From Candidatus Fraserbacteria bacterium (GTDB taxonomy: Bacteria > Bipolaricaulota > Bipolaricaulia > RBG-16-55-9 > DRXL01), in the NCBI GenBank assembly GCA_947085185.1, contig CAMTVK010000003.1, positions 96,001-160,000 on the forward strand: a stretch of DNA of 64,000 bases, written 5' to 3'. Made by a program: the position numbers and the translations under genes. The stretch's first letter is position 1. Each line of letters begins with the position of its first letter. Below, in pieces: positions 15,932 to 29,588 of this stretch. The notes under the pieces were generated by a model that saw only the letters and a list, made by a program, of their open reading frames with translations, was not told where the DNA came from and did no database searches.

Positions 15932-17119
15932 ATGGAGAAGGTGCGCAAGTGGTTCACTGTTTCGGCCGTCTTGATGTTGATCTTGGTCTTTATCGTGGCT
16001 TTGGATAACTACAATCAAGAGTGGAAGCGCTATCAGCGGGCCTATCTCACGAAGGTCCTTACAGATAAAACTTTGGCCGAGAAGGGCTCGCTCTCGCTGC
16101 TCGATCGGCTCGTGATAGCGGTCAACGCTGAGATGAATCTTCAGATCAGAAAAGTCGTCACCGAGGTGGGGCGCAGCGCCGATCTGTGTATGACGTGTCA
16201 TGCCAACGTCGGCGTACCGGGGTTTACAGCCGAGCCCCTCAAAGATCTTTTGGAGACCCATAAAGCTATAAAAGTCATAGAGCAGATGCCGTTCGATCAA
16301 GTAGGGTGTACGGCGTGTCATGGGGGGAATGCTCTGGCGCTGCGTGCCGAGCCGGCGCATCACGAGATGCGGTCTCGCTTTGCCCAGATCTTTGAAGAGA
16401 GCGTGGAGCGATTGCGCTCAGAACGGTGGGCAGAGCGCCAGCGAGGGATCGAGCTCATTCGTTGGATGACTGCGAACGACTTTGGCTTTGTCTTCAACGC
16501 TCCCAAGGAGCAGCGCGAGCAAGCTCTCGCGCGCATTCTGGCGTGGTGGCAGCTCCACAAAGACACGTTCTTAGTCGAGGGCTTTGGGGAGCGCAGCTCG
16601 CCGTTCCGCACCGAAAACCCTCAAGCGAAGATAATCGAGCAGCGCACTGACGTCTCTCTCGCGGGCGAGCCGTTGCAGTTTGTCGGCTCGGCCACGTGCG
16701 TTGCGTGCCATGGACGCCCCGAAATCAGCGACGTCTACATCCCCGAATCGAGCAAGCGCCACGTCGAGATCTGGTTCAGGCCGGAGTTCATGACGAGCAA
16801 AAATATCGAAGAATTTAAAGATCATCCGTTTATAGACCAAGAGACGCTGAAGACCATGGACGTGACCTGCGAGGCGTGTCACGGTCCAGGGAGCGAATAC
16901 ACGAAGCTCATGCAGAAGGGGATGGCCCTCGAAGCCGCGGGCCAGAGCGTCGAAGCTGCTGCCCTTATCGGGAAGGCCAAAGAGCTTGCGCGGGCCAACG
17001 CCCGACAGAACATGAGCGAACATGACCCAGCCACCGGATACTCGCGCATTTGGGCGATCTTTGAAAGGCTGATCGAGAAGGCCCTCGCGGCCAAGGGACA
17101 GAACCGCCCCACCGAATAG
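15932..17119 (+). CDS. Membrane-anchored tetraheme c-type cytochrome
   Basis: N-terminal TM helix; four CxxCH motifs (CMTCH, CTACH, CVACH, CEACH); C-terminal pair resembles a c554-like domain. Confidence 0.88.
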   Translation: MEKVRKWFTVSAVLMLILVFIVALDNYNQEWKRYQRAYLTKVLTDKTLAEKGSLSLLDRLVIAVNAEMNLQIRKVVTEVGRSADLCMTCHANVGVPGFTAEPLKDLLETHKAIKVIEQMPFDQVGCTACHGGNALALRAEPAHHEMRSRFAQIFEESVERLRSERWAERQRGIELIRWMTANDFGFVFNAPKEQREQALARILAWWQLHKDTFLVEGFGERSSPFRTENPQAKIIEQRTDVSLAGEPLQFVGSATCVACHGRPEISDVYIPESSKRHVEIWFRPEFMTSKNIEEFKDHPFIDQETLKTMDVTCEACHGPGSEYTKLMQKGMALEAAGQSVEAAALIGKAKELARANARQNMSEHDPATGYSRIWAIFERLIEKALAAKGQNRPTE

Positions 17120-17124
17120 CTGTA

Positions 17125-17178
17125 TTGACAGGCGCCCCTGGATCTTTTAGAATAAGTCGGAGTCTTTTACTCGGAGTT
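17125..17178 (+). promoter_or_regulatory. sigma70 promoter plus probable IscR/Rrf2 operator
   Basis: TTGACA(17125)-17-TAGAAT(17148), followed by the imperfect palindrome AAGTCGGAGTCTTTTACTCGGAGTT resembling IscR type-1 sites. Confidence 0.6.
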
Positions 17179-17182
17179 GGAA

Positions 17183-17611
17183 ATGAGAGTGACACGCAAG
17201 AGCGATTATGGGCTACGGGCGTTGTGCACCCTTGCGCGCCACTATAACGGGGAGCCTGTCTCTATTGGGCAGCTTTCCGCAGAGCACAAGATTCCTGAAC
17301 CGTTCTTGGAGAAGATCATGCAAGAGCTGCGCGAGCACGGCTTGGTCGAAGCGACGCATGGGCGCGGCGGCGGATATCTGCTCAAGAGGAGCCCTTCGCG
17401 CATCTCGCTGCGCGAGATCGTGAAAGCTCTCGACGGCCCGATCGCGCTCGTGACGTGTTTGGACCCAGCCTTAAAGTGCTCCATCAAAGCGGGCTGCCCC
17501 ACAAGTTCTATCTGGGAGATTATTAACCAAAAGCTCGAGGAACATCTGGCTTCGCTGACGTTGGGCGATGTCGTCAATATGCACCACCCTGAACGGGTGA
17601 CCTCATCATGA
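17183..17611 (+). CDS. Rrf2-family (IscR-like) Fe-S transcriptional regulator
   Basis: MRVTRKSDYGLRAL, GRGGGY; three C-terminal Cys (CLDPALKCSIKAGCP). Confidence 0.88.
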   Translation: MRVTRKSDYGLRALCTLARHYNGEPVSIGQLSAEHKIPEPFLEKIMQELREHGLVEATHGRGGGYLLKRSPSRISLREIVKALDGPIALVTCLDPALKCSIKAGCPTSSIWEIINQKLEEHLASLTLGDVVNMHHPERVTSS

Positions 17612-18654
17612 CGTTAGACGAGCGAGCCCGCGCAGCCTTACACACTATAGAGATTCCTCGCGCTCACCGACCGCTCAGCGATCTTGTGGAAGCTCTCTCT
17701 ATCGATGGAGAGGCTGTCCATGTGCGGCTGCGCTTGCTCCCCGCTTATGCGTCCAAATCTCAGCTCAAAGCCTGGGTCGAACAAGCATTCCAAGGTATTT
17801 CTGAGATCAAGACGGTGCACGTCGAATTTGCCCAGGCTCCACGACAGGCGCCTCGGCCCCGCCTCCTCCATCCCACACAGAAGCTGCACTTTCCCCAGAT
17901 CGCTCATATTGTTGCGATCTTTAGCGGCAAGGGCGGGGTAGGCAAAAGCACCGTCAGCGTCAATCTCGCTGTAGCGCTCGCGCAGTCAGGAGCGCACGTC
18001 GGGCTCTTTGACGCGGACGTGCACGGACCGAATATTCCTACGCTTCTGGGGCTGAAAGAGCCCCCCACAGTGAAAGCCGGAAAACTCATGCCCATCTTCA
18101 AATACGGCGTCCACGCTATGTCTATTGGGCTCTTAGTGGGCGGGGGAGATCCGCTCATCTGGCGCGGCCCGATGATCTCCAAAGCGATCAATGAGCTCTT
18201 AGAGAGCACGGCCTGGCCGGAGCTCGAGTATTTGATTATAGATCTCCCCCCAGGGACAGGCGACGCGCAGTTGGGCTTGGCTCAAGACCTAGAGCTTTCC
18301 GGGGCGATCGCTGTGACGACCCCCCAAGAAGTCGCGCTCTCCGATGTGCGCCGGGGCATTGGAGCTTTCCAGAAGCTGAATGTATCTATTGTTGGGCTCA
18401 TCGAGAACATGGCGTATTATATCTGTCCTCAGTGTGGGCACAAAGACTATATCTTTGGGCAAGGGGGTGGCGCCAGCGAAGCCCATAGACGCCAGATCCC
18501 GCTGTTGGGGCAGATCCCCCTCGATCCGAAGCTCCGCGAGAACGGCGACGCTGGGGTGCCTATTGTGATCGCGGCACCGTCGTCACCCACAGCTCAAGAG
18601 TTCACCAAGATCGCCCAGGCGCTCATCGAACGATGGAACACACACAAGGGGTGA
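17608..18654 (+). CDS. Mrp/NBP35 (ApbC) Fe-S cluster carrier ATPase
   Basis: SGKGGVGKST, DADVHGP, IWRGPM, DLPPGTGD, ENMAYYICPQC. Confidence 0.93.
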   Translation: MTLDERARAALHTIEIPRAHRPLSDLVEALSIDGEAVHVRLRLLPAYASKSQLKAWVEQAFQGISEIKTVHVEFAQAPRQAPRPRLLHPTQKLHFPQIAHIVAIFSGKGGVGKSTVSVNLAVALAQSGAHVGLFDADVHGPNIPTLLGLKEPPTVKAGKLMPIFKYGVHAMSIGLLVGGGDPLIWRGPMISKAINELLESTAWPELEYLIIDLPPGTGDAQLGLAQDLELSGAIAVTTPQEVALSDVRRGIGAFQKLNVSIVGLIENMAYYICPQCGHKDYIFGQGGGASEAHRRQIPLLGQIPLDPKLRENGDAGVPIVIAAPSSPTAQEFTKIAQALIERWNTHKG

Positions 18655-18660
18655 CCACCA

Positions 18661-18966
18661 ATGACCGCTGACGATATCCGCGAGGTGATCCGCGAGAACG
18701 TCTTCGACCCGGAGCTGGGCTACAACGTCGTGGATTTGGGGTTGCTCTACGACGTCGACATCCGCGACGACAAGACCGTGCGTCTGGAGATGACATTGAC
18801 GACTGTAGGCTGCCCGCTCTACGAGCAGATCCAAGCTGACTGTGAGCGTGCGATCAAGGAACGCTTTGGGGAGGACGTCACCGTTGAGGTCGATTTCGTC
18901 TTCGATCCGCCGTGGAGCCCAGAGATGATGTCGGAAGAGATCCGCGCGGAGATGGGATTTATCTAG
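18661..18966 (+). CDS. DUF59/SufT Fe-S assembly protein
   Basis: DPELGYNVVDLGL, MTLTTVGCP, FDPPWSPEMM. Confidence 0.92.
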   Translation: MTADDIREVIRENVFDPELGYNVVDLGLLYDVDIRDDKTVRLEMTLTTVGCPLYEQIQADCERAIKERFGEDVTVEVDFVFDPPWSPEMMSEEIRAEMGFI

Positions 18967-19599
18967 ATGGCTCGCTGTGTCTATTGTGGGAAGCGGGTGG
19001 GCAAGCGTGCTTGCCCGGCGCTGGGAGGGCTGATCTGTCCGTCATGCTGTGGGCAGCATCGCGGGATCGACATCAGCTGTCCGATCAGCTGCAAATATTT
19101 CAAGGCGCATGAGAGCTATCAGCGCGATCGGCTCGCCGACGAATTCCACGCCCTGTGGCGTGAGAAGACCGAATCCCTCTATAAAGCTGGCAAGGAGCGC
19201 GTGATCGATCTCATCGTCATGATAGAGATGCTGATCTATCAGTTCTATCGGGAGCGGGCCTTGGGCACAGACACCGATGTGCTCGAGGCGCTCGAAGCGC
19301 TCCGACGTCGGTTCAGCCCAGTGATGGTCATCGAGGCGGGGAGCACCGCGTTAGCTGCTCACATATGGCACGGCCTGCAAGAGTTTAAAGAATCCCTGAC
19401 TCCTGAAGAGGCCTCCGAGAGCTTAGAGAAGAGCTTGGAGATCTTCAGAGCCTACACGGACGCAACGCATCCCAGAAAGTATCTGCACGGGCTTTTGGGG
19501 CACGTCGCGCGATATTTTCAGCTTCCTCCGGAGATGACCACCAGCCCATCCCTCATTGCTACCCCGCAGATCGTCACGCCTCCTACTGCCAGGGGATGA
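18967..19599 (+). CDS. Hypothetical protein with Cys-rich N-terminal metal-binding domain
   Basis: Eight Cys in the first 40 aa; starts immediately after the SufT stop. Confidence 0.75.
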   Translation: MARCVYCGKRVGKRACPALGGLICPSCCGQHRGIDISCPISCKYFKAHESYQRDRLADEFHALWREKTESLYKAGKERVIDLIVMIEMLIYQFYRERALGTDTDVLEALEALRRRFSPVMVIEAGSTALAAHIWHGLQEFKESLTPEEASESLEKSLEIFRAYTDATHPRKYLHGLLGHVARYFQLPPEMTTSPSLIATPQIVTPPTARG

Positions 19600-20636: not shown

Positions 20637-21266
20637 CTAGCTGGGGTTCACCCCTGCCTTGGCGGCTTGTTTGAGTCTCTCTAAGACGGGCGTGCCGCCG
20701 GGGTAGCACCCATCGAGCTTGGCTTTGCCGGCGACGACAGCCTCCGCAAAATCCTCGCACGTGGGATACCCGCAGGCCAGACAATCAAAGCCGGGCAAGA
20801 CCGCGCGGAGCTTGGCCGCCGCGGGCGAGAGCGCTGGAGCTTTGGGAGCTTCAGGAGCTTGCTCGACCTTGGGCCAGGACATGACTAACGGCTTAAAGAG
20901 CTCGATCACAAGATCGCTCTTCATCGAGATCTGGCATGATAAGACCCAGCCCTCCTTGCGCAGCTTATCGCTGAGGGGGCCGAGCATCGCCGGGGTGATC
21001 TGCTCTGGAGCCAGCCCTTCTAAGACTTTGACGCGGCAGGTCGCGCACGTGCCCTTGCCGCCGCACTGCGCGAACAGATCATACCCGGCTTTTTTGAGGG
21101 CTTGCATCAGGTTCTGCTCCAGGGGTAAGACCAGCTCATTGCCGTCGTTGACGATCTTGACGCGTGCCTCTCCCTCAGCTGTGAGCACATTCTTTAATAT
21201 CCCTAACACAAGAGCTACCGAGATGGCCATCAGGGCCATCGTCGCTACTGGTACGAGATAGACCAT
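20637..21266 (-). CDS. Membrane-anchored Fe-S protein: NqrF-like TM+[2Fe-2S] domain plus RnfB-like [4Fe-4S] domain
   Basis: TM helix, CGGKGTCATC...LSC, then LPGFDCLACGYPTCEDFAEAV...CYPGG; no FAD/NADH domain. Confidence 0.82.
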   Translation of the reverse strand: MVYLVPVATMALMAISVALVLGILKNVLTAEGEARVKIVNDGNELVLPLEQNLMQALKKAGYDLFAQCGGKGTCATCRVKVLEGLAPEQITPAMLGPLSDKLRKEGWVLSCQISMKSDLVIELFKPLVMSWPKVEQAPEAPKAPALSPAAAKLRAVLPGFDCLACGYPTCEDFAEAVVAGKAKLDGCYPGGTPVLERLKQAAKAGVNPS

Positions 21267-21293: not shown

Positions 21294-21890
21294 TCATCCT
21301 CCAAAGTCGCGAATATTGATCATTCCCGAAAAGCCCACGAAGCTCATGGCCATGAGGCCCGCAATGATCAGGGCGATCCCTGGGCCTTTGAGCCCCTCAG
21401 GGATGGGAGCAAAGCGCAGGCGCTCTCTCATAGCCGCCATCAAGATGATCGCCAAAGCCCAACCGACGCCCCCGCCAAACCCAAACGCCACGCTCTCGAG
21501 AAACCCCAAATTCCATGTGGCTAACGCGAAGAGCACCCCGCCCAGAATCGCACAATTCACTGTGATCAAGGGCAAGAAGATCCCTAAAGAGTTATACAAA
21601 GCCGGGAGAAAGCGCTTCATGAACATCTCCACGGCCTGGACCAAGAACGCGATCGTCACAATATAGACGATGAGCGACAGATATCCTACTCCCAAGGGAT
21701 CGAGCACAAAGTGCTTGATGAGCCAATTGGCAGGCAGGGTCATGGTCAGCACGAAGATCACCGCCATGCCCATCCCCGACGCCGATGCGTATTCGCCCGA
21801 GACGCCAATGAACGGACAGATTCCCAAGAACGTCGTGAGCAAGATATTATTCGTGAGGATCGCGCCAAGCACAATGAGAAAGATGTCCAT
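21294..21890 (-). CDS. rnfA: RnfA/NqrE membrane subunit
   Basis: NNILLTTFLGICPF, LPLITVNCAILG, AMRERL. Confidence 0.92.
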   Translation of the reverse strand: MDIFLIVLGAILTNNILLTTFLGICPFIGVSGEYASASGMGMAVIFVLTMTLPANWLIKHFVLDPLGVGYLSLIVYIVTIAFLVQAVEMFMKRFLPALYNSLGIFLPLITVNCAILGGVLFALATWNLGFLESVAFGFGGGVGWALAIILMAAMRERLRFAPIPEGLKGPGIALIIAGLMAMSFVGFSGMINIRDFGG

Positions 21891-21893
21891 AAG

Positions 21894-22574
21894 CTACGCG
21901 CCTCCTCCGATCTGGCCGCCGGGGGAGAAGTGCCTTACGATCCCGACATACAGCCCCACAAGTAAGAACGCCCCCGCCGGGATGATCATGATGACCCAGG
22001 GAGTCCAGCCGCTGAAGATCTGAATCCCGAACAAGCTGCCAAAGCCCAAGAGCTCCCGAACGATGCCGAGTATCGTCAGGGACATCGTGAACCCTAGCCC
22101 GACGCCGATAGCGTCGAGCGCCGACAGTCCTGGGCCGTTTTGGCTGGCGAACGCTTCGGCTCGTCCCAGCACGAAACAGTTCGTAATGATCAATGGGACG
22201 TAAGGCCCAAGCGCTGCCGACAGCGGCGGCAGATACGCGCGCAAGAAGATATCGACGATCGTTACCCAGAACGCAATGATGATCATATACGCGGGCAGGC
22301 GCACTTCCGCGGGGATAACGGTGCGGAGAGCTGCTACGGTGGCGCTTGAGGCCACGGTCGCGATCAGCGTCGCAAGCCCTTGGGCCATGCCGTTCATGGC
22401 CATGTTCGTCGCGCCCATGGTGGGGCACATCGCCAAGATCATCCGGAAAGTTGGGTTGTCGTCCCAGATATCGCGAACGAGTTCCTTCCACCCTTTGGTC
22501 TGGGGCAGCCGCTGGGGGAACGGAATAGCCGGCGCTGATGCGCGTTGCATCACTGCTGTCTTCACTTCTGCCAT
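21894..22574 (-). CDS. rnfE: RnfE/NqrD membrane subunit
   Basis: NPTF...MCPTMGAT, PLIITNCFVLGRAEAFA, RELLGFGS, PAGAF; ATG 22574 has SD AAGGAG. Confidence 0.92.
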   Translation of the reverse strand: MAEVKTAVMQRASAPAIPFPQRLPQTKGWKELVRDIWDDNPTFRMILAMCPTMGATNMAMNGMAQGLATLIATVASSATVAALRTVIPAEVRLPAYMIIIAFWVTIVDIFLRAYLPPLSAALGPYVPLIITNCFVLGRAEAFASQNGPGLSALDAIGVGLGFTMSLTILGIVRELLGFGSLFGIQIFSGWTPWVIMIIPAGAFLLVGLYVGIVRHFSPGGQIGGGA

Positions 22575-22617
22575 CCGCCTCAACTCCTTCTGACTGCGCT
22601 GAGGTCAGTCATAAAAA

Positions 22618-22648: not shown

Positions 22649-23347
22649 TCATCGCTTTTTCTCTAGAATTTTTCGCAAGTTCGCGATCGCCTGGTTGAGC
22701 AGATCTCGCACCGTCGTGGACGTATACGTAGCCCCGGTGATGGCGTCAAACTGATTGGGGGCTTTGGGGGAGCTGGGATCGCGGAACTTCACAAACTCGA
22801 TGCGCGGCTCGGTCTTCATCCCTTTGAATTGGCTCCAAAATTTCTCTTCGGTCATGCGGAAGCCCAACCCTGGGGTCTCGCCGATCTCGAACGTCACGAC
22901 ATGCGCCCCGATAATCTCTGACAGATCGGGCTTGAGCGCCACTTGCATGGCGACGAGTCCCTGAAAGCCGCTGCCTTGGATGCGAATAACGTACGCTGAG
23001 AGCTCCCCGCCGATCTTGTCTTTGTAGACCTTCCAGTACGTAAAGCTATCGGCCTTGACCTCCTCGATGTGCTCTTTGAAGTACTGATCTATTTGGGCGG
23101 GGGAGAGCACAGGCAGCCCCTCTTGGGGGAAGAGCTCGTCAGCAGAGTACTCGCCCAGCGCCACAAGGATGCTCGAGCGCAGGCGGGCCTTGGCGTTCGC
23201 TTCAATAGTTGCTTTCGTCACTTCATTGACCACTGCGAGCAGTCCCCCCGCTATGGCGGCGATCGCTGTCAGCACCACGATCATGCGCCACTCGTGAGGC
23301 CCGATCAGCTTCTTCTTTCTCTTTTGGGGTTGTGCTGGCTCAGCCAT
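22649..23347 (-). CDS. rnfG: RnfG/NqrC covalent-FMN subunit
   Basis: N-terminal TM helix, GSGFQG, ETPGLG, FDAITGATYTS flavinylation motif. Confidence 0.92.
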   Translation of the reverse strand: MAEPAQPQKRKKKLIGPHEWRMIVVLTAIAAIAGGLLAVVNEVTKATIEANAKARLRSSILVALGEYSADELFPQEGLPVLSPAQIDQYFKEHIEEVKADSFTYWKVYKDKIGGELSAYVIRIQGSGFQGLVAMQVALKPDLSEIIGAHVVTFEIGETPGLGFRMTEEKFWSQFKGMKTEPRIEFVKFRDPSSPKAPNQFDAITGATYTSTTVRDLLNQAIANLRKILEKKR

Positions 23348-23353
23348 ACAAGA

Positions 23354-24469
23354 TCACCTCTTTTGGAGAGCTGGCGCCGAGAAGCTCTTGGGGATCGTGA
23401 ATCTGTCAATCAACGGCGTGAACATATTGCCAATTAAAATAGCGAACGTCACCCACTCGGCATAGCCGGTCAGCCCACGCCCCAGTACCGTCAACACTCC
23501 CAACATTATACCGAAGATCCATCGTCCGCGGACGGTCATAGGGCTCGTGACAGGATCGGTCGCATTGAGAAATGCCGCAAAGAGCAAGCCCCCACTGAGC
23601 ACGGCGTAGATCCCATCAGGGAATCTCACAGGATTGATAAAGCTGAGAAACTGCGAAGTCAGCCCAGCAGTAACGATCATAACTATTGAGACGCGCCAGT
23701 CAATGATCCGTGCATATAAGAGATAGAGTCCGCCTAGGAGAACGAGCAGGGCCGAAGTCGCTCCCAGGACATCCGCCCGACCAAAGCCCGTCACGAGCGT
23801 AAAGAGCTCGGGATTGGCAATGTCTGGGGAGTTGAACGCCCCCAAGGGGGTCGCCTTGGCGATGGCGTCTATGCCCTTTACTGATTCGGGAGACCAATGC
23901 ACAAAACCTCCAAGTCCGTCCGTCAACGGGTTGAAGGGCATGTACCAGCGCGTTGTCATAGCCGACGGGAACGCTAAGAGTAAAAACGCCCGCCCGCTGA
24001 TCGCCGGGTTGAAGATATTATATCCCGACCCGCCGAAGAGTTCTTTGACCCCAATGGCGAAGAAGATCCCCATCGCGACCATCCACAGGGGCAGCGTTGG
24101 GGGCAGCGAGAGCGCATAGAGAATGCATGTCACCAGCAGACCCTCGGTGATCTCGTGGCGCCGGACTGCACAGAAAGTAAACTCGACAGCCATCCCGACA
24201 AGATAAGTCACTACGATGATCGCCAGGGCACGCCATCCGTAAAAGTAGATGCTCGCCAGGGCCAGAGGGATGCAGACGAGTATAGGAGAGCCCATGTAGC
24301 GTTGCATTCCCAAGGCGTCCCGAATATAGGGGGCTTGGCGAGCTGGCTTATCGCTGCCGCCGAAGATCGAATCTTTGAGACCCTCCCATAGGATAGCCAA
24401 GCCCTCGGCACGGCGGGCGTGGAGGTCGCGATGCACCCTCTCGAAGAAATTATAGATCTTGTCTTTCAT
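23354..24469 (-). CDS. rnfD: RnfD/NqrB membrane subunit
   Basis: APYIRDA, KELFGGSGYNIFNPA, DAIAKATPL, ATDPVTSP; ATG 24469 overlaps the rnfC stop (ATGA). Confidence 0.92.
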   Translation of the reverse strand: MKDKIYNFFERVHRDLHARRAEGLAILWEGLKDSIFGGSDKPARQAPYIRDALGMQRYMGSPILVCIPLALASIYFYGWRALAIIVVTYLVGMAVEFTFCAVRRHEITEGLLVTCILYALSLPPTLPLWMVAMGIFFAIGVKELFGGSGYNIFNPAISGRAFLLLAFPSAMTTRWYMPFNPLTDGLGGFVHWSPESVKGIDAIAKATPLGAFNSPDIANPELFTLVTGFGRADVLGATSALLVLLGGLYLLYARIIDWRVSIVMIVTAGLTSQFLSFINPVRFPDGIYAVLSGGLLFAAFLNATDPVTSPMTVRGRWIFGIMLGVLTVLGRGLTGYAEWVTFAILIGNMFTPLIDRFTIPKSFSAPALQKR

Positions 24470-25890
24470 GATGCCTCCGTGAGAACCTTGCGTTTGCCTT
24501 CGCGAATCTGTTCTAAGAGCGGGATCTTGCTGGGGCAGACATAGGCACACAACCCGCACTCAATGCACGCAAAGAGATCAATGCTTTGCGCTTCGCTCAC
24601 CATACCGTGGGCAGAGTATTCCCCAAGCAGCGCCGGCACTAAATTCTGCGGGCAGACGTCCACGCAATAACCGCACTTGACGCAGGGCCTGGGGTTTCCG
24701 TTCAAGCTGGTCGTGGCGCGCTTGTACTTGACCCACGGCAGACTCAGATACACCCCCGTGAACGAGTCGCGATCGAAGCCCGGCCCAACGACGGGAAAGA
24801 GCTCATGCTCTGGTTCTTTGAGGGCGATCACAGCGGGGATCTCTCTGGTGATGGGGCTATCGAGATCCCCCTGGGCTTGTCCACGCATGACGCTTCCCGC
24901 GATGATGCGCCCGTTGCCCTTCAAGTTCTTCTCTAAAAGATTCCCGATGGGGGTGCCTACCCGAACCCGATAGTTCCCAGGCTCTTTTACAGCTGAGCCC
25001 GCTACGGAGACGACGCGCTCGACGAAGGGCTTGCCCTCTACGACCGCTTCATAAGCTGCCACACACTGCTGGACATCACACACGACGCACCCGACGTCAG
25101 TGGCGTAGCCTCGCTGCGGGAGCAGGAGCCCCAAGAGCGTGCGCACAAGCACCGCGTCGTCGCCCTGAGGGTATTTGGGACGCAATTGATGGATCGTGCA
25201 CCAGTCATAGTATTCGAGGCGCTCGATGAGCTCTTCGTAGATTCTCGGCTTGTTATATCCCAAGCCAATGTGCACTTGGACGTTCCCGAGCGCTTGGCGC
25301 AGGATCTTGATGCCGTTGACAAATTTGTCGAACTCTTCGTAGAGCAACTGATCGGGTGCTTCGCAGAACGGCTCGGTCTCAACGGCGTTGATTAGTAAAT
25401 AGCGAATCTTCTCTGGAGTGGCTGGGGAGGAGTGATAGATCGTGGGGAAGCCCGCTTGGCCTCCCGAAGTGACCCCGGCTTCGTAGAGGATTTTTCCCAG
25501 TTCTTCTGGGGGCAGTTTTTCGTAGTTGGCCGGGCGATCAAGCAAGAGCCAATCGTCTTTGCCGTCGGACTCGATCTCGACGCAGAGGGCCTCGCCACCT
25601 AACGGATGCGGGCGCTTCTCTATCTTCACGACCCTTCCGGAGATGCTTGCGTGGACAGGGGTCGAGGGTCTGTTGGGGTCGGGCTCGTTGCGCCCGATGA
25701 CCTGCCCCGTCTTGACGCGGTCGCCCTCTTTGACAGTCGGCACGACTTCGGCAGAAAAGCCCTGACGCAAGGGAATCAGAACTCTCGGGGGCAGCGGCGC
25801 GGATGCGAGCCGCTTGCCGCGCGGCGTCCCCTCAAAGAGCCCAAAGTAATGGCCACCCTTGAACGTCTTGAGCGCTCCTAAGACAGCCAT
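24466..25890 (-). CDS. rnfC: RnfC/NqrA-like subunit with two [4Fe-4S] motifs
   Basis: PVHASISG, AGFPT, LINAVETEP, KYPQG, CVKCGYCVDVCP and CIECGLCAYVCP. Confidence 0.9.
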   Translation of the reverse strand: MAVLGALKTFKGGHYFGLFEGTPRGKRLASAPLPPRVLIPLRQGFSAEVVPTVKEGDRVKTGQVIGRNEPDPNRPSTPVHASISGRVVKIEKRPHPLGGEALCVEIESDGKDDWLLLDRPANYEKLPPEELGKILYEAGVTSGGQAGFPTIYHSSPATPEKIRYLLINAVETEPFCEAPDQLLYEEFDKFVNGIKILRQALGNVQVHIGLGYNKPRIYEELIERLEYYDWCTIHQLRPKYPQGDDAVLVRTLLGLLLPQRGYATDVGCVVCDVQQCVAAYEAVVEGKPFVERVVSVAGSAVKEPGNYRVRVGTPIGNLLEKNLKGNGRIIAGSVMRGQAQGDLDSPITREIPAVIALKEPEHELFPVVGPGFDRDSFTGVYLSLPWVKYKRATTSLNGNPRPCVKCGYCVDVCPQNLVPALLGEYSAHGMVSEAQSIDLFACIECGLCAYVCPSKIPLLEQIREGKRKVLTEAS

Positions 25891-26649
25891 TTAGCGTCGC
25901 TTCCTTTCTTCGGTCCACCAGGGTTTGCTGTACTCGTCCTTGCGAATTCTCCAAAAGTGCAGCGCCACGAGAAAGATCAACGCCATCGGCAGCACAAAGA
26001 TGTGAATGACGTACCACCGCAAGAGCGAGGGCTGCCACAGGTCCGTGCCCCCCAAGAGTATCTGTTTCACATACGGCCCGATGATTGGTGTGCCGTCCGC
26101 GATATTGCTGGCGATCTTCGCTGCATAATAGCCCAACTGGTCCCAGGGCAGAATATACCCACTGAATGCAGAGAGCACCGTGATGACGAAGAGCAAGACC
26201 CCGATGACCCAGTTGAATTCTCTGGGCTTTTGATAGGATCCGGTGAAGAAGACCCTCAGCATATGGAAGAACACGGCGAAGACCATCAGCTCGGCGGCCC
26301 ATTTGTGCATATTGCGCATGAATCTTCCCAAGGGCACAGCGTTGACCAGCTCGCGGATAGAATCATAGGCACGCTCAACTGAGGGCACATAATAGAACAT
26401 TAAAAAGACCCCGGTGATCAAGAGAATCACAAAGAGCCAGGTTGCGATCACGCCCATCCACATCCAATTGTAGCTGAGTCGGGCCGATTCTTTATGGATC
26501 TTCGCGGGCAGGATATGCACGAAGAAGTTGCGCCTATTGAGAGCGAGCCGGTCGGCTTCAGTCTGGGGCAGCCCCTCGCGGCGGAAGATGGAGAGCCACA
26601 CGCGCGAGCGCCGTATACCCTGGCCCAGCAGAAGGAGTCTGTCCATCAT
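25891..26649 (-). CDS. Cytochrome b N-terminal part (cytochrome b6/PetB-like)
   Basis: ITGVFLMFYYVPS, RNMHKWAA...FHMLRVF, PREFNW, GYILPWDQ, WYVIH...LHFWRIRK (four heme-b His). Confidence 0.93.
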   Translation of the reverse strand: MMDRLLLLGQGIRRSRVWLSIFRREGLPQTEADRLALNRRNFFVHILPAKIHKESARLSYNWMWMGVIATWLFVILLITGVFLMFYYVPSVERAYDSIRELVNAVPLGRFMRNMHKWAAELMVFAVFFHMLRVFFTGSYQKPREFNWVIGVLLFVITVLSAFSGYILPWDQLGYYAAKIASNIADGTPIIGPYVKQILLGGTDLWQPSLLRWYVIHIFVLPMALIFLVALHFWRIRKDEYSKPWWTEERKRR

Positions 26650-27197
26650 GAGAACTTGATGTCACTCCCGTCGGGGATGGGGCCTTCGATAGATCGGCCG
26701 TCGGCCGTGAGATACTGAGTACTTGGGACGACTTTGGCCTTATCGACTTGGAGACGGCCGTCGGGGGTGAGGGTGAGCTCATAGAAGGGCAGGGGTCGAG
26801 GCGCTGGGCCGCCCAGGACTCGCCCGTCGCGGGCAAAGACGCTCCCATGACAGGGGCAGAGCGCGTGCACCACGGGATACTCTTGACTTGGCGGCCCAAA
26901 GGGCTTATAGCTGCACCCCAGATGGGTGCAGACCATAGAGAGGGCCTGAAATCCCAAGGGCGTTCGGAAGATGAAGACCTGCTTCGCTTCGAGAGGGCGC
27001 ATCTCTCCGACCTGATAGTCACTGGGGCGCCCTACGGTGAACGTCGTGGTGGGCTCATAGGTCAGGTGCGGCTTCAGATAATACGGGACGCTCTGGGCCA
27101 CACCACCCAAAGCCAACGCGAGCGATCCCCATCCCAGCCACCCGAGAAAGCGTCGCCGCGTCAGCGGGCTCACTCTTGGGTCTCTGTCCGCCTCCAT
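26646..27197 (-). CDS. Rieske [2Fe-2S] subunit (PetC/QcrA-like) with Tat anchor
   Basis: TRRRFL twin-arginine motif, CTHLGC, CPCHGS, GPAPRPL. Confidence 0.94.
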   Translation of the reverse strand: MEADRDPRVSPLTRRRFLGWLGWGSLALALGGVAQSVPYYLKPHLTYEPTTTFTVGRPSDYQVGEMRPLEAKQVFIFRTPLGFQALSMVCTHLGCSYKPFGPPSQEYPVVHALCPCHGSVFARDGRVLGGPAPRPLPFYELTLTPDGRLQVDKAKVVPSTQYLTADGRSIEGPIPDGSDIKFS

Positions 27198-27227: not shown

Positions 27228-27256
27228 ATTATATTACAGCCCCTTTGCGCTGTCAA
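27228..27256 (-). promoter_or_regulatory. Perfect-consensus sigma70 promoter of the Rieske/cyt b-Rnf operon
   Basis: TTGACA-17-TATAAT on minus strand, overlapped by an ACAGC...GCTGT inverted repeat; SD AAGGAG precedes the Rieske ATG. Confidence 0.8.
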
Positions 27257-27371
27257 ACTTCTCTGATCTTCTACTCTATTGAGGGGATCTTTTGCCATGA
27301 TCTGCGTCATCCCTGAGGATGACGTCGGTCATGTGATGGCCCTCGCTCTTTTTGTTATGATTATTATATCA

Positions 27372-27962
27372 ATGTTTACTGGGATTGTCACGGACACCGG
27401 CGAGGTGCTCACGGCGCACGCGACGCGGCTTGTCATCGCTACCCCTAAGCTCTTTGGAGCATTAGAAATCGGGCGGAGCGTCGCGGTCAATGGAGCGTGC
27501 CTGACGGTCATCGAGCTCACTCCTGCCGCGGAGAGCTTCGCGGCAGAGCTGAGCCCAGAGACCATCCGGCGCACGAACTTGGGAGCCCTGCGCCGCGGCG
27601 ATCTCGTCAATTTGGAGCTGCCCTTACGATTTTCTGATCGTCTCGATGGGCACTTCGTGCTGGGGCACGTGGACACCGTTGGGGAGGTCGTCTCGATCTC
27701 TCGCACAGAGAAGGGCGCGGTCTTCCGGTTTCGCGTCGATAAGAGCTACTCACACTATCTGGTCGAGAAGGGCTCGATTGCCATAGATGGGATCAGCTTG
27801 ACGATCTTCAATATCTCTGATGGGGAGTTTGACGTGGCGATCATCCCTCATACGCTCGAGCACACGAACTTACGGGTGCGTTGCCCTGGGGATAGAGTGA
27901 ATGTCGAGTTCGACATTTTGGGAAAGTATATAGAAAGACTCTGCAAGGGAGGCTGCTTGTGA
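27372..27962 (+). CDS. ribE: Riboflavin synthase (alpha chain)
   Basis: MFTGIV N-terminus, [31 protein letters not shown]. Confidence 0.95.
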
Positions 27963-29188
27963 TGGGGTTTGCCAAGATCAAAGAGGCGCTGGAAGCGCTC
28001 AAGCGTGGTGAGATGATCGTCGTCGTAGACGACGAAGACCGCGAGAACGAAGGCGACGTCGTATTGGCAGCCCAGTTTGTCACCCCGGAGAAGATCAATT
28101 TTATGGCGAAGGAGGCCCGGGGGATCATCTGTGTGCCCATGACGGGGGAGCGGCTCGATGAGCTTGGGATCAAGCTCATGGTGCAGACGGATTCTGGGGG
28201 AAAGGGATGCGCGTTCACGGTCTCAGTAGACGCTCGCGAGGGGATCAGCACCGGGACGTCTGCGTACGATCGCGCCCATACTATTAGAACGCTGATCGCT
28301 CCCAAGACCAAGCCTTCAGATTTAGTCCAGCCGGGGCATGTCTTTCCGTTGCGTGCTCGGCCCGGCGGCGTCTTGCAGCGGGCTGGCCACACCGAAGCCA
28401 GCGTCGATCTCTGTAAATTAGCGGGGCTCTACCCTGCTGCGGTCATCTGCGAGGTGATGAACGAGGACGGCACGATGGCCCGGCTGCCCCAGCTGGAAAG
28501 ATTCGCACAGAAGCATAATTTGCTCATTATAAGCATTGCCGATCTCATTCGCTATCGCTACGAACGCGAGCGCTTGGTCGAGAAGATCGCCTGGGCCGAT
28601 CTTCCTACGGAGTTTGGGGAGTTTACGATCCATGCCTATCGCAGTCTCGTTGATGGAAAGGAGCACATCGCGCTGGTCAAGGGCGAGGTCACCGGAAGAG
28701 AGAACGTCTTAGTGCGGGTGCACTCAGAATGTCTGACAGGAGATGTCTTTGGCTCGCTCAAGTGCGACTGTGGGGAGCAGCTCCGGCAAGCCCTGCGCCA
28801 GATCGCCCATGAGGGTATGGGGGTCTTGCTCTATTTACGCCAAGAGGGACGCGGCATCGGCCTAGGAAACAAGATCAAAGCGTATCATCTCCAAGATAGA
28901 GGGCTGGACACGGTGGAGGCGAACCGGCAGCTCGGCTTTAAAGAAGATCTCCGCGAGTACGGCATCGGGGTACAGATTCTGAAAGATTTGGGGCTGAGCA
29001 CCATTCGAATTCTCACCAATAACCCCAAGAAGCTCGTGGGCATCGAGGCCTACGGCATCAAGATCGTGGAGCAACTGCCCCTTTTAGTCGCGCCCAACCC
29101 CCATAATTATAACTATCTGAGGACGAAGAAAGAGAAACTAGGCCACCAGCTCGATGCGATCTTCGCGAACTTCAGCAATGAGCCTTAA
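27959..29188 (+). CDS. ribBA: Bifunctional DHBP synthase / GTP cyclohydrolase II
   Basis: [43 protein letters not shown]. Confidence 0.96.
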
Positions 29189-29588
29189 GATCGCGATCGT
29201 TGTCAGTCAATTTCACAGAGAGATCACCCAAGAGATGCTCAAGGGCGCTCAAGAGCACCTGCGAGGCGTCGCCGAGACCGAAGTCTTCTGGGTGCCGGGG
29301 GCGTTCGAGATTCCAGGGACCGTCAAGGGGTTGGCGCAGTCGGGGCGCTATGACGGCATCTTGCCCTTAGGGTGTGTGATCAAGGGCGAGACTGCCCATT
29401 TTGAGCATATTGCCCGCGCCGTGACTGATGCGCTCATGCGCTTGACTGTGGAATGCGATACCCCAATAGTCTTTGGGGTGCTGACCCCCTACACCGAAGA
29501 GCAAGCGTGGGCACGCGTCTATAAGGGGGCTGAAGCAGCCAAGAGCCTGCTGGAGCTTATCACTCTGCGTCGGCGGCTCTCTTATTAA
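29178..29588 (+). CDS. ribH: Lumazine synthase
   Basis: [25 protein letters not shown]. Confidence 0.94.

Follow-up and report, generated by a model that had tools for sequence, protein, structure and literature searches.

Which donor feeds the membrane pump encoded at this locus, and where would its electrons leave? Rnf and Nqr have a common pump with different input and output modules, and their interconversion has been argued from trees, while we know of no intermediate in hand. In the window, the 64,000-nucleotide stretch of Candidatus Fraserbacteria DNA analysed here, Rnf/Nqr-like genes follow those of a Rieske protein and a cytochrome b, and the gene in the RnfB/NqrF position encodes a protein of 209 residues which combines one cluster domain of each system (Table 1).

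Architecture, selection and spread of the two-cluster protein

Pfam parsing of the 209-residue protein yielded Fer2 (PF00111, residues 43-115, E 2e-11), FeS (PF04060, residues 157-189, E 2e-13) and no other domain. Its eight cysteines, all invariant in 31 aligned relatives, fall four into each of two motifs, CGGKGTCATC...LSC for the [2Fe-2S] domain and LPGFDCLACGYPTC...CYPGG for the [4Fe-4S] domain. Hydropathy of about 2.0-2.3 across residues 1-30 marks a single hydrophobic N-terminal helix, and the predicted structure (mean pLDDT 83.8, pTM 0.54) consists of a helix, a beta-grasp ferredoxin, a loose linker and a small helical domain. Domain parsing, motifs and model confirm the architecture that a sequence-only reading had described, namely a membrane anchor, an NqrF-like [2Fe-2S] domain, a Pro/Ala linker and an RnfB-type domain.

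The protein scores below the family cut-offs of both RnfB (TIGR01944, 42.7 vs 68.7 bits) and NqrF (TIGR01941, 63.2 vs 295 bits). The closest match among sequences of solved structures is NqrF residues 9-126 (E 3e-11; own residues 8-126), and in the same kind of search RnfB chains align to the C-terminal domain only. Fold searches, limited to the ferredoxin domain, gave AcsV/RACo (Z 11.9, rmsd 2.3, 91 aligned) and NqrF (Z 11.1, rmsd 3.8, 126 aligned), which are tied within 1; the [2Fe-2S] domain resembles those of NqrF, AcsV/RACo and oxygenase reductases. The C-terminal domain scores 67 bits on the RnfB FdI profile and 25 on AcsC. AcsC as the origin of the [4Fe-4S] domain is disfavoured by this score, and the domains are too short for trees to give origins.

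Homologues at E<=1e-5 number 59, and 55 of them have both Pfam domains, the C-terminal cluster domain being lost in the other four and in the genome G150. A motif scan found FAD/NAD or CxxCxxCxxxCP motifs in none of the 59, in agreement with the claim that FAD/NADH and polyferredoxin domains are missing. The gene gave dN/dS values of 0.063-0.094 in 7/7 comparisons with relatives, low in both domains. A truncated nqrF pseudogene or a chance fusion, to which the loss of the C-terminal domain in those few members might point, can be dismissed for practical purposes on the strength of these values and the eight invariant cysteines; moreover, the two-domain protein spans five families of the order and G142.

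The two-domain protein was found in 30 of 151 Bipolaricaulota genomes: in the window's order 29 of 33 genomes encode it, G142 is the thirtieth, and the remaining 117 gave no match. Of the four genomes of the order that lack it, three contain parts of the operon that are cut by contig ends, and the fourth, G150, encodes helix and ferredoxin only. A search of 1.84 billion representatives returned 10 matches at E<=1e-30, of which 8 span both domains, and none of the 41 weaker matches scanned (from the 140 listed below the score gap) has both together. Both domains are encoded at 5 of 80 metagenome loci; among the other 75, 14 are of the Rnf/Nqr type with ferredoxin proteins of 347-495 residues that lack the [4Fe-4S] domain. 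In a scan of species genomes, full-length matches were obtained at 14 of 42 loci. Within the genomes, representatives and metagenome loci searched, the architecture is not a common feature of ordinary Rnf or Nqr operons, which supports the earlier suggestion that the usual electron-entry module has been replaced. Rieske and cytochrome b genes are the usual neighbours of the two-domain gene, yet they are missing in G034 and at the metagenome locus L182.

Several variants were met in the course of these searches. In G049 the gene is duplicated and split (L036:7889-9773), the first ORF carrying an RnfA remnant with the [2Fe-2S] domain and the next one the [2Fe-2S] and [4Fe-4S] domains without a helix. 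Tandem double [4Fe-4S] domains occur at L037:11345-12181, L038:11678-12481 and L182:8218-9000. A 589-residue protein in a cytochrome c gene cluster (G000:C2:3916-5685 (+)) has an RnfB FdI-like domain, with 46 bits on the family profile.

Table 1. Coordinates of the operon, its neighbour gene and the parts of the two-cluster protein in the window
Feature	Position	Strand	Remark
Candidate operon promoter, sigma-70 consensus 12/12, 30 bases upstream of the Rieske start	27228..27256	(-)	consensus match alone
Rieske protein, 183 aa; twin-arginine-like motif, CTHLGC and CPCHGSVF boxes	26646..27197	(-)	
Four-helix cytochrome b, 252 aa; four heme histidines read in sequence; no CxGG heme cn motif	25891..26649	(-)	
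RnfC/NqrA-like subunit, 474 aa; both [4Fe-4S] motifs kept, flavin/NADH-site residues altered	24466..25890	(-)	
RnfD/NqrB-like subunit, 371 aa; start overlaps upstream stop (ATGA)	23354..24469	(-)	
RnfG/NqrC-like subunit with TGAT flavinylation motif	22649..23347	(-)	
RnfE/NqrD-like subunit, both cluster cysteines present	21894..22583	(-)	
RnfA/NqrE-like subunit, both cluster cysteines present	21294..21890	(-)	
Two-cluster membrane-anchored subunit, 209 aa, RnfB/NqrF gene position	20637..21266	(-)	ATG to TAG ORF
N-terminal membrane helix, residues 4-31; leans RnfB-type in family	21174..21257	(-)	model, hydropathy, profiles
[2Fe-2S] ferredoxin domain, residues 33-125; Cys68, 74, 77, 111	20892..21170	(-)	
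Kept LV..WP segment, then variable Pro/Ala/Glu linker, residues 126-145	20832..20891	(-)	
RnfB FdI-type single [4Fe-4S] domain, PF04060, residues 146-203; Cys162, 165, 170, 187	20658..20831	(-)	
[2Fe-2S] ferredoxin fused to subunit IV (APWY motif), 350 aa	19583..20635	(-)	
Membrane-anchored tetraheme cytochrome c	15932..17119	(+)	co-distributes with Rieske/cytochrome b

The operon and its position between Rnf and Nqr

On the minus strand the gene order is Rieske, cytochrome b, C, D, G, E, A, two-cluster subunit and ferredoxin-subunit IV, with gene ends that overlap or abut at four junctions. The two-cluster gene holds the B/F position after rnfA, the ferredoxin-subunit IV gene starts one base past it, and the operon contains the sole A/E pair of its genome (G000). 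The hallmarks of a b6f-type complex are present, i.e., Rieske boxes, a split four-helix cytochrome b, four histidines, the last pair of which was read in the window sequence only, and a subunit IV with a PEWY-type motif (here APWY). At the heme cn position the segment is W/Y-MG-V/A in those family members where it was read. The core subunits D, G, E and A have the flavinylation threonines and the A/E cluster cysteines, and ApbE is encoded in G000.

The tetraheme cytochrome was found in 27 of 34 genomes and is missing from G034, from all four f3 genomes, which are also without cytochrome b, and from two genomes that are 70-75% complete. Because its presence and absence follow those of cytochrome b, this cytochrome probably serves the Rieske/cytochrome b complex as its c subunit. 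Between this gene and the operon end, at 17177-19599 (+), lie genes for an Rrf2 regulator, an Mrp/NBP35 ATPase, a SufT-like protein and a cysteine-rich protein of 210 residues, which are conserved in the genus and likely form an iron-sulfur delivery unit. Riboflavin synthesis genes at 27279-29588 (+), divergent from the candidate operon promoter, are near the operon in many relatives as well and fit a flavin-rich complex. A further near-consensus candidate promoter is seen at 27363-27391 (-), and another Rieske/cytochrome b locus of the genome lies among multiheme cytochrome genes (G000:C9:4963-10026 = L178).

The C subunit passes the RnfC cut-off (323 vs 246 bits, TIGR01945), and all eight cluster cysteines are present in 71/71 homologues. 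The flavin/NADH site is altered. Gly142, Gly145, Lys153, Glu245 and Asn272 (canonical residues in window numbering), which are invariant in 17/17 RnfC, are kept in 1, 0, 1, 0 and 0 of 22 operon copies and in 8, 0, 4, 1 and 1 of the 71 homologues, respectively. The Asn272 position presumably binds the FMN phosphate. Positions 145, 153 and 245 were equated, by their spacing from Phe71 and Tyr180, with Gly68, Lys76 and Glu185 of NuoF, which contact NADH according to the available sections of two papers (PMC11677225, PMC9299107). G034 and one further cluster have lost the glycine loop altogether, and the gene is still under selection. The flavin domain of C shows strong purifying selection (dN/dS 0.03-0.06), and Asn168, Glu173, Tyr240 and Gly243 are kept in 68-69 of the 71 homologues, so that C may still bind a flavin in an altered manner. 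From these residues, which are degenerate alike in full and reduced operons, we consider that NADH turnover has probably been lost, and the subunit would stand midway between RnfC and NqrA, with the clusters kept and the flavin/NADH-site residues changed.

The D subunit passes the TIGR01946 cut-off and keeps the FMN-attachment Thr motif. Unlike RnfD, it has the NqrB-type N-terminal extension and helix III (first glycine, HEI.EG), a feature defined in the accessible part of PMC4014512; the second NqrB glycine is Met in the window, at a position that varies among true NqrB. A concatenated D+E+A tree of 30 operons, 13 of them NqrF-bearing, was rooted on 11 Rnf operons. The family groups with Nqr (100/100) and apart from the 11 Rnf operons in the sample, and it is sister to all 13 NqrF-bearing operons (98/96). 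Topology tests rejected joining it to the f8 operons (p-AU 0.030) or to Nqr proper (p-AU 0.024). A mixture model on 21 of the 30 rows, nine having been dropped for time and long branches so that 7 Rnf operons were in the sample, recovered the same topology with 100/100 for the Nqr side and 88/89 for the sister position. A quick tree of the C subunit, which carries long-branch warnings, agrees with this placement, and the single-gene tree of D (RnfD) left the four groups unseparated.

The f8 operons of the same phylum (L054-L060) resemble the family in their A/C subunit, in which eight cluster cysteines accompany a degenerate flavin site, and in NqrB-type B/D; they differ by a full NqrF of 360 residues at the end and the lack of cytochrome b, and are closer to true Nqr. 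A full NqrF and an A subunit with two [4Fe-4S] motifs are seen at L068 and L069 as well as at L054-L060, and relatives of this A subunit with 495 residues occur in KSB1, Omnitrophota, Endomicrobiia and Planctomycetota.

As for the origin of the two-cluster protein, its membrane helix scores higher on the RnfB than on the NqrF profile in 27 of 36 family members, a count that includes redundant sequences; the margin of the window's own helix is small (16.6 vs 13.5 bits). In a weakly resolved tree of the ferredoxin domain the family forms its own group beside the NqrF group and is not nested inside NqrF. Owing to the tree position, the helix scores and this grouping, an RnfB with an inserted [2Fe-2S] domain would fit at least as well as an NqrF with a swapped head, and an NqrF that was merely cut short is not the best-supported origin in view of helix profiles and D+E+A trees. 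A swapped head is possible, and G025 demonstrates that head swaps occur; there, at L053:8490-13339, an NqrF-type helix and [2Fe-2S] domain are fused to NuoE/HoxE and are followed by NuoF-like and NuoG-like genes and a full NqrF.

Natural variants, proposed electron path and competing readings

The full operon is contiguous in 10 genomes and broken by contig ends in 5. Eleven genomes have a pump-less form with Rieske, cytochrome b, C, D, two-cluster protein and subunit IV, and PF02508 (A/E) found no match in them. Here the two-cluster protein begins with the last three RnfA helices (profile E<=0.01 in 7 of 9 genome ORFs tested), an arrangement that would fit the RnfB-RnfA contact seen in solved Rnf (available portion of PMC9588780). 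NuoD is above cut-off in 11/11 pump-less genomes versus 1/16 pump-bearing ones, as expected if complex I took over the job; NuoD-like genes lie just under the cut-off in 4 pump-bearing genomes and over it in G142.

The opposite loss is seen in G034 (90% complete), whose locus is without Rieske, cytochrome b, subunit IV and tetraheme cytochrome, and in which neither cytochrome b nor the tetraheme cytochrome was matched anywhere in the genome; the two-cluster gene is retained under purifying selection nonetheless. L182 likewise has the two-cluster gene without cytochrome genes, which the G150 locus also lacks, and in L182 and G150 the C-D-G-two-cluster genes are separate from E/A. In three f3 genomes the two domains are fused to a NuoC-like subunit in a complex-I-like cluster. 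These fusions (L043:5742-6716, L042:12106-13341, L173:90-1070) lie in a complex-I-like/Mrp cluster beside hydrogenase-like genes, with no NuoI-like gene adjacent. Elsewhere, the ferredoxin-subunit IV protein is encoded as two ORFs in G107, G061 and one metagenome locus (L049:5581-6691, L050:6728-7838, L183), and in G150 the E and A genes lie apart from C-D-G (L259:4183-7597), upstream of an ORF of 698 residues that resembles a membrane iron-sulfur oxidoreductase by eye.

From its distribution, the two-domain unit appears to behave as a portable electron plug. The earlier proposal that the adjacent subunit IV protein is its partner is supported in part, since that gene directly follows in 26 of 30 genomes; it is not an obligatory partner, because the two-domain gene persists without it in G034, L182 and the three NuoC-like fusions. 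Nor must the partner be something else than usual, as had been argued: in Thermotoga maritima a one-cluster, polyferredoxin-free RnfB accepts electrons from ferredoxin (PMC7414866), and therefore a new partner is not logically required.

The question of function is for us an even call in favour of an electron-entry subunit of a ferredoxin:menaquinone ion pump that would be co-transcribed with complex III. Reduced ferredoxin would donate to the RnfB-type [4Fe-4S] domain and the [2Fe-2S] domain would pass the electrons to the RnfA/E cluster, from which the onward path known for the family would lead to the FMN of G and then to D with its FMN and riboflavin, and ions would be pumped the way Rnf and Nqr do. 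As C has likely lost the flavin/NADH site, the final acceptor would be menaquinone, bound at the NqrB-type site of D, and not NAD+; with a C subunit that is likely NAD-blind and an NqrB-like D, menaquinone seems the simplest outlet. The Rieske/cytochrome b complex and the tetraheme cytochrome would re-oxidise menaquinol, and the subunit IV ferredoxin could act as an additional, dispensable connection from the C-subunit clusters or the two-cluster protein to cytochrome b on its cytoplasmic side. The sequences themselves show the layout of domains and cysteines, the selection on the gene, the order of the genes and the series of their losses, the changed residues of C, the NqrB-type helix and the tree position; cofactors, donor, acceptor, direction, ion and physical contacts are inferred.

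Structures of Rnf and Nqr show that the A/E cluster is fed by a ferredoxin domain on a flexible tether beside the helix (accessible sections of PMC12174285, PMC9588780 and PMC11889175). In the present protein the [2Fe-2S] domain holds this delivery place, and the [4Fe-4S] domain would therefore occupy the input position. The ferredoxin:menaquinone reading draws support from the B/F gene position, the retention of the gene with the core after cytochrome loss (G034, L182), the RnfA helices and NuoD genes of the pump-less genomes, the T. maritima precedent, the FdI profile score, the altered C residues, the NqrB-type D and the tree position. By sequence, G000 also encodes MenA, ferredoxin-dependent oxidoreductases and CODH/ACS; no match was found for futalosine MqnA/D, and of the classical men genes MenA was tested. 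Several observations speak against the ferredoxin:menaquinone reading. By sequence G000 has an oxidase and pyruvate dehydrogenase, yet no NADH:quinone entry could be assigned to it under this reading. NuoD had no match in this genome, and of its Pyr_redox_2 proteins the 3 scanned by name do not resemble NDH-2. The NDH-2 profile PF22366 gave no match either, a result without weight because the control responded in just 3 of 14 genomes, E. coli not being among them. The two-cluster protein must serve another partner in the 11 genomes without an A/E pair. The conserved flavin domain of C, the Met at the second NqrB glycine, the sister support that falls to 88/89, the unresolved RnfD tree, the NuoD-like genes of some pump-bearing genomes and the missing MqnA/D match count against it as well.

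The gap in NADH entry would be filled if the same plug received NADH electrons in trans from a standalone flavoprotein docking on the [4Fe-4S] domain, in effect an Nqr with a separate gene for its NADH head, a reading that we hold unlikely. The candidate is an RnfC/PduS-like flavoprotein of 361 residues with a permuted RnfC_N domain (G000:C7:3709-4794 (+) = L154:3709-4794), in which the flavin/NADH motifs are intact and cluster cysteines are absent. All five canonical residues are present in 18/18 such proteins. Of the 34 genomes made up by the order and G142, 31 encode one, against 0/117 others, which is nearly the range of the two-cluster protein, and in 4 of the loci read the gene adjoins lipoate synthase and dehydrogenase E1 genes. 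In 7 of the 11 pump-less genomes no NuoF-type match other than this flavoprotein and C was found, and the head swap of G025 places the same plug type (TM, [2Fe-2S] and NuoE) beside NuoF/G-like genes. Against it, the flavoprotein never adjoins the operon in the loci read, the common range is mostly that of one lineage and hence no independent evidence, and no fusion with the two-cluster protein was found in a weak search (581-2000 aa only); a role as a PduS-like cobalamin reductase would be an alternative.

A different proposal, which takes up the partner idea of the sequence-only reading, has the protein relay electrons between the ferredoxin of subunit IV and an Rnf in which C handles NAD(H). 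Either electrons from NADH would reach cytochrome b on its Qi side, or NAD+ would receive bifurcated electrons, as has been proposed for the Rieske/cytochrome b complexes of anammox bacteria; we regard either direction as rather improbable. The adjacency of subunit IV, the cytochrome b without a heme cn motif and the 11 genomes that keep Rieske, cytochrome b, C, D, two-cluster protein and subunit IV without G/E/A, where a pump-independent wire is likely, are in line with it, and so is the anammox precedent, which in the sections available is itself a proposal without demonstration (PMC12954380). It conflicts with the degenerate NAD(H) site of C in full and reduced operons and with selection on the gene in the absence of any cytochrome b (G034); going by the energetics of the family, electrons from cytochrome b through an ion-pumping core to NAD+ would moreover run uphill twice. 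The published annotation, finally, implies an ordinary ferredoxin:NAD+ Rnf with a minimal RnfB plus one extra ferredoxin domain, merely co-transcribed with complex III. The six subunits in CDGEAB order, the C and D subunits that pass their cut-offs and the annotation of a cluster of the same order as rnfCDGEAB (Takami 2012, PMC3267732, in the portion consulted) agree with it, but the altered flavin/NADH residues of C, the NqrB-type D and the position outside the sampled Rnf operons leave it improbable in our judgement.

Relation to known systems and meaning for the family

RnfB (TIGR01944; PDB 7zc6_B, 8ahx_B, 9eri_B) shares with the two-cluster protein the membrane helix, the FdI domain (LPG.DC..C....C...C.PGG) and the last place in CDGEAB, and differs in that the latter has a [2Fe-2S] domain and linker between helix and FdI and no polyferredoxin; the CxxCxxCxxxCP repeats are likewise absent from the T. 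maritima RnfB (PMC7414866). NqrF (TIGR01941; PDB 8a1t_F, 7xk3_F) has a helix followed by a plant-type [2Fe-2S] domain at the same gene position, and its FAD/NAD domains are replaced by the [4Fe-4S] domain in the two-cluster protein; the only NAD_binding_1 match in G000 is on a contig other than the operon's. In contrast to NqrA of Na+-NQR, which is without cofactors, the C subunit of the operon keeps both cluster motifs; it has two [4Fe-4S] clusters like RnfC and, by a sequence test, misses the canonical flavin/NADH-site residues.

The existence of the operon is already known. In Ca. Acetothermum autotrophicum, rnfCDGEAB, Rieske and cytochrome b lie in one cluster (OP4C155-0162) that was read as ordinary Rnf (Takami 2012, PMC3267732); by gene order and phylum, it is most likely the same operon. 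In the part of that paper available to us it is treated as an ordinary ferredoxin:NAD+ pump, with no mention of the B architecture, the subunit IV fusion or the altered C, and the locus tags had no match in its text supplements. The anammox complexes Kuste4569-4574 and Kustd1480-1485 likewise combine a split b6-type cytochrome b, subunit IV, a multiheme cytochrome c and cytoplasmic iron-sulfur parts; as far as the accessible text goes, a putative NAD(P) oxidoreductase forms the cytoplasmic module there, and the model includes heme cn (PMC12954380). The present operon differs by its Rnf/Nqr membrane core, the absence of CxGG and no intact NAD site seen, its sole candidate for an NAD(P) oxidoreductase subunit being C with its degenerate site. 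The word Rieske is absent from the sections at hand of a 2025 RNF/NQR review, Rnf and NQR are absent from Dibrova 2017, and the parts seen of Colman 2022, the Caldithrix genome paper and PMC9992828 contain nothing on the two-cluster protein. In the literature found (open-access papers, mostly listings) there is no description of the two-domain architecture, the altered C or the tree position. What seems new, judged from sequence, is a C subunit with clusters and five altered flavin/NADH-site residues, an NqrB-type helix in D and a sister position to the NqrF-bearing operons sampled.

A more far-reaching and tentative interpretation, to which we give less credence than to the assignment of function, is that Na+-NQR evolved from Rnf through a stage which this operon still preserves, namely a sodium pump of the ferredoxin:menaquinone type linked to a complex III of its own. 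RnfB would then have gained the [2Fe-2S] domain between helix and FdI before the FAD/NAD domains arrived, C would have lost its flavin before its clusters, and D would have gained a quinone site. This order of events differs from that of the published model, in which, according to the available text, rnfB was lost first and a whole oxygenase reductase was recruited (Reyes-Prieto 2014, PMC4014512).

What gives the family its value is that both entry domains, a C subunit of the cluster-only type and a stem branch between Rnf and Nqr occur together, so that the order of the Rnf-Nqr steps becomes testable with three small proteins. The natural deletion variants, without cytochrome genes, without pump or fused to a NuoC-like subunit, are ready comparisons. 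For metabolism of the Acetothermum type, in which the "Rnf" has so far been read as the ferredoxin:NAD+ coupling site of acetogenesis, the picture would change.
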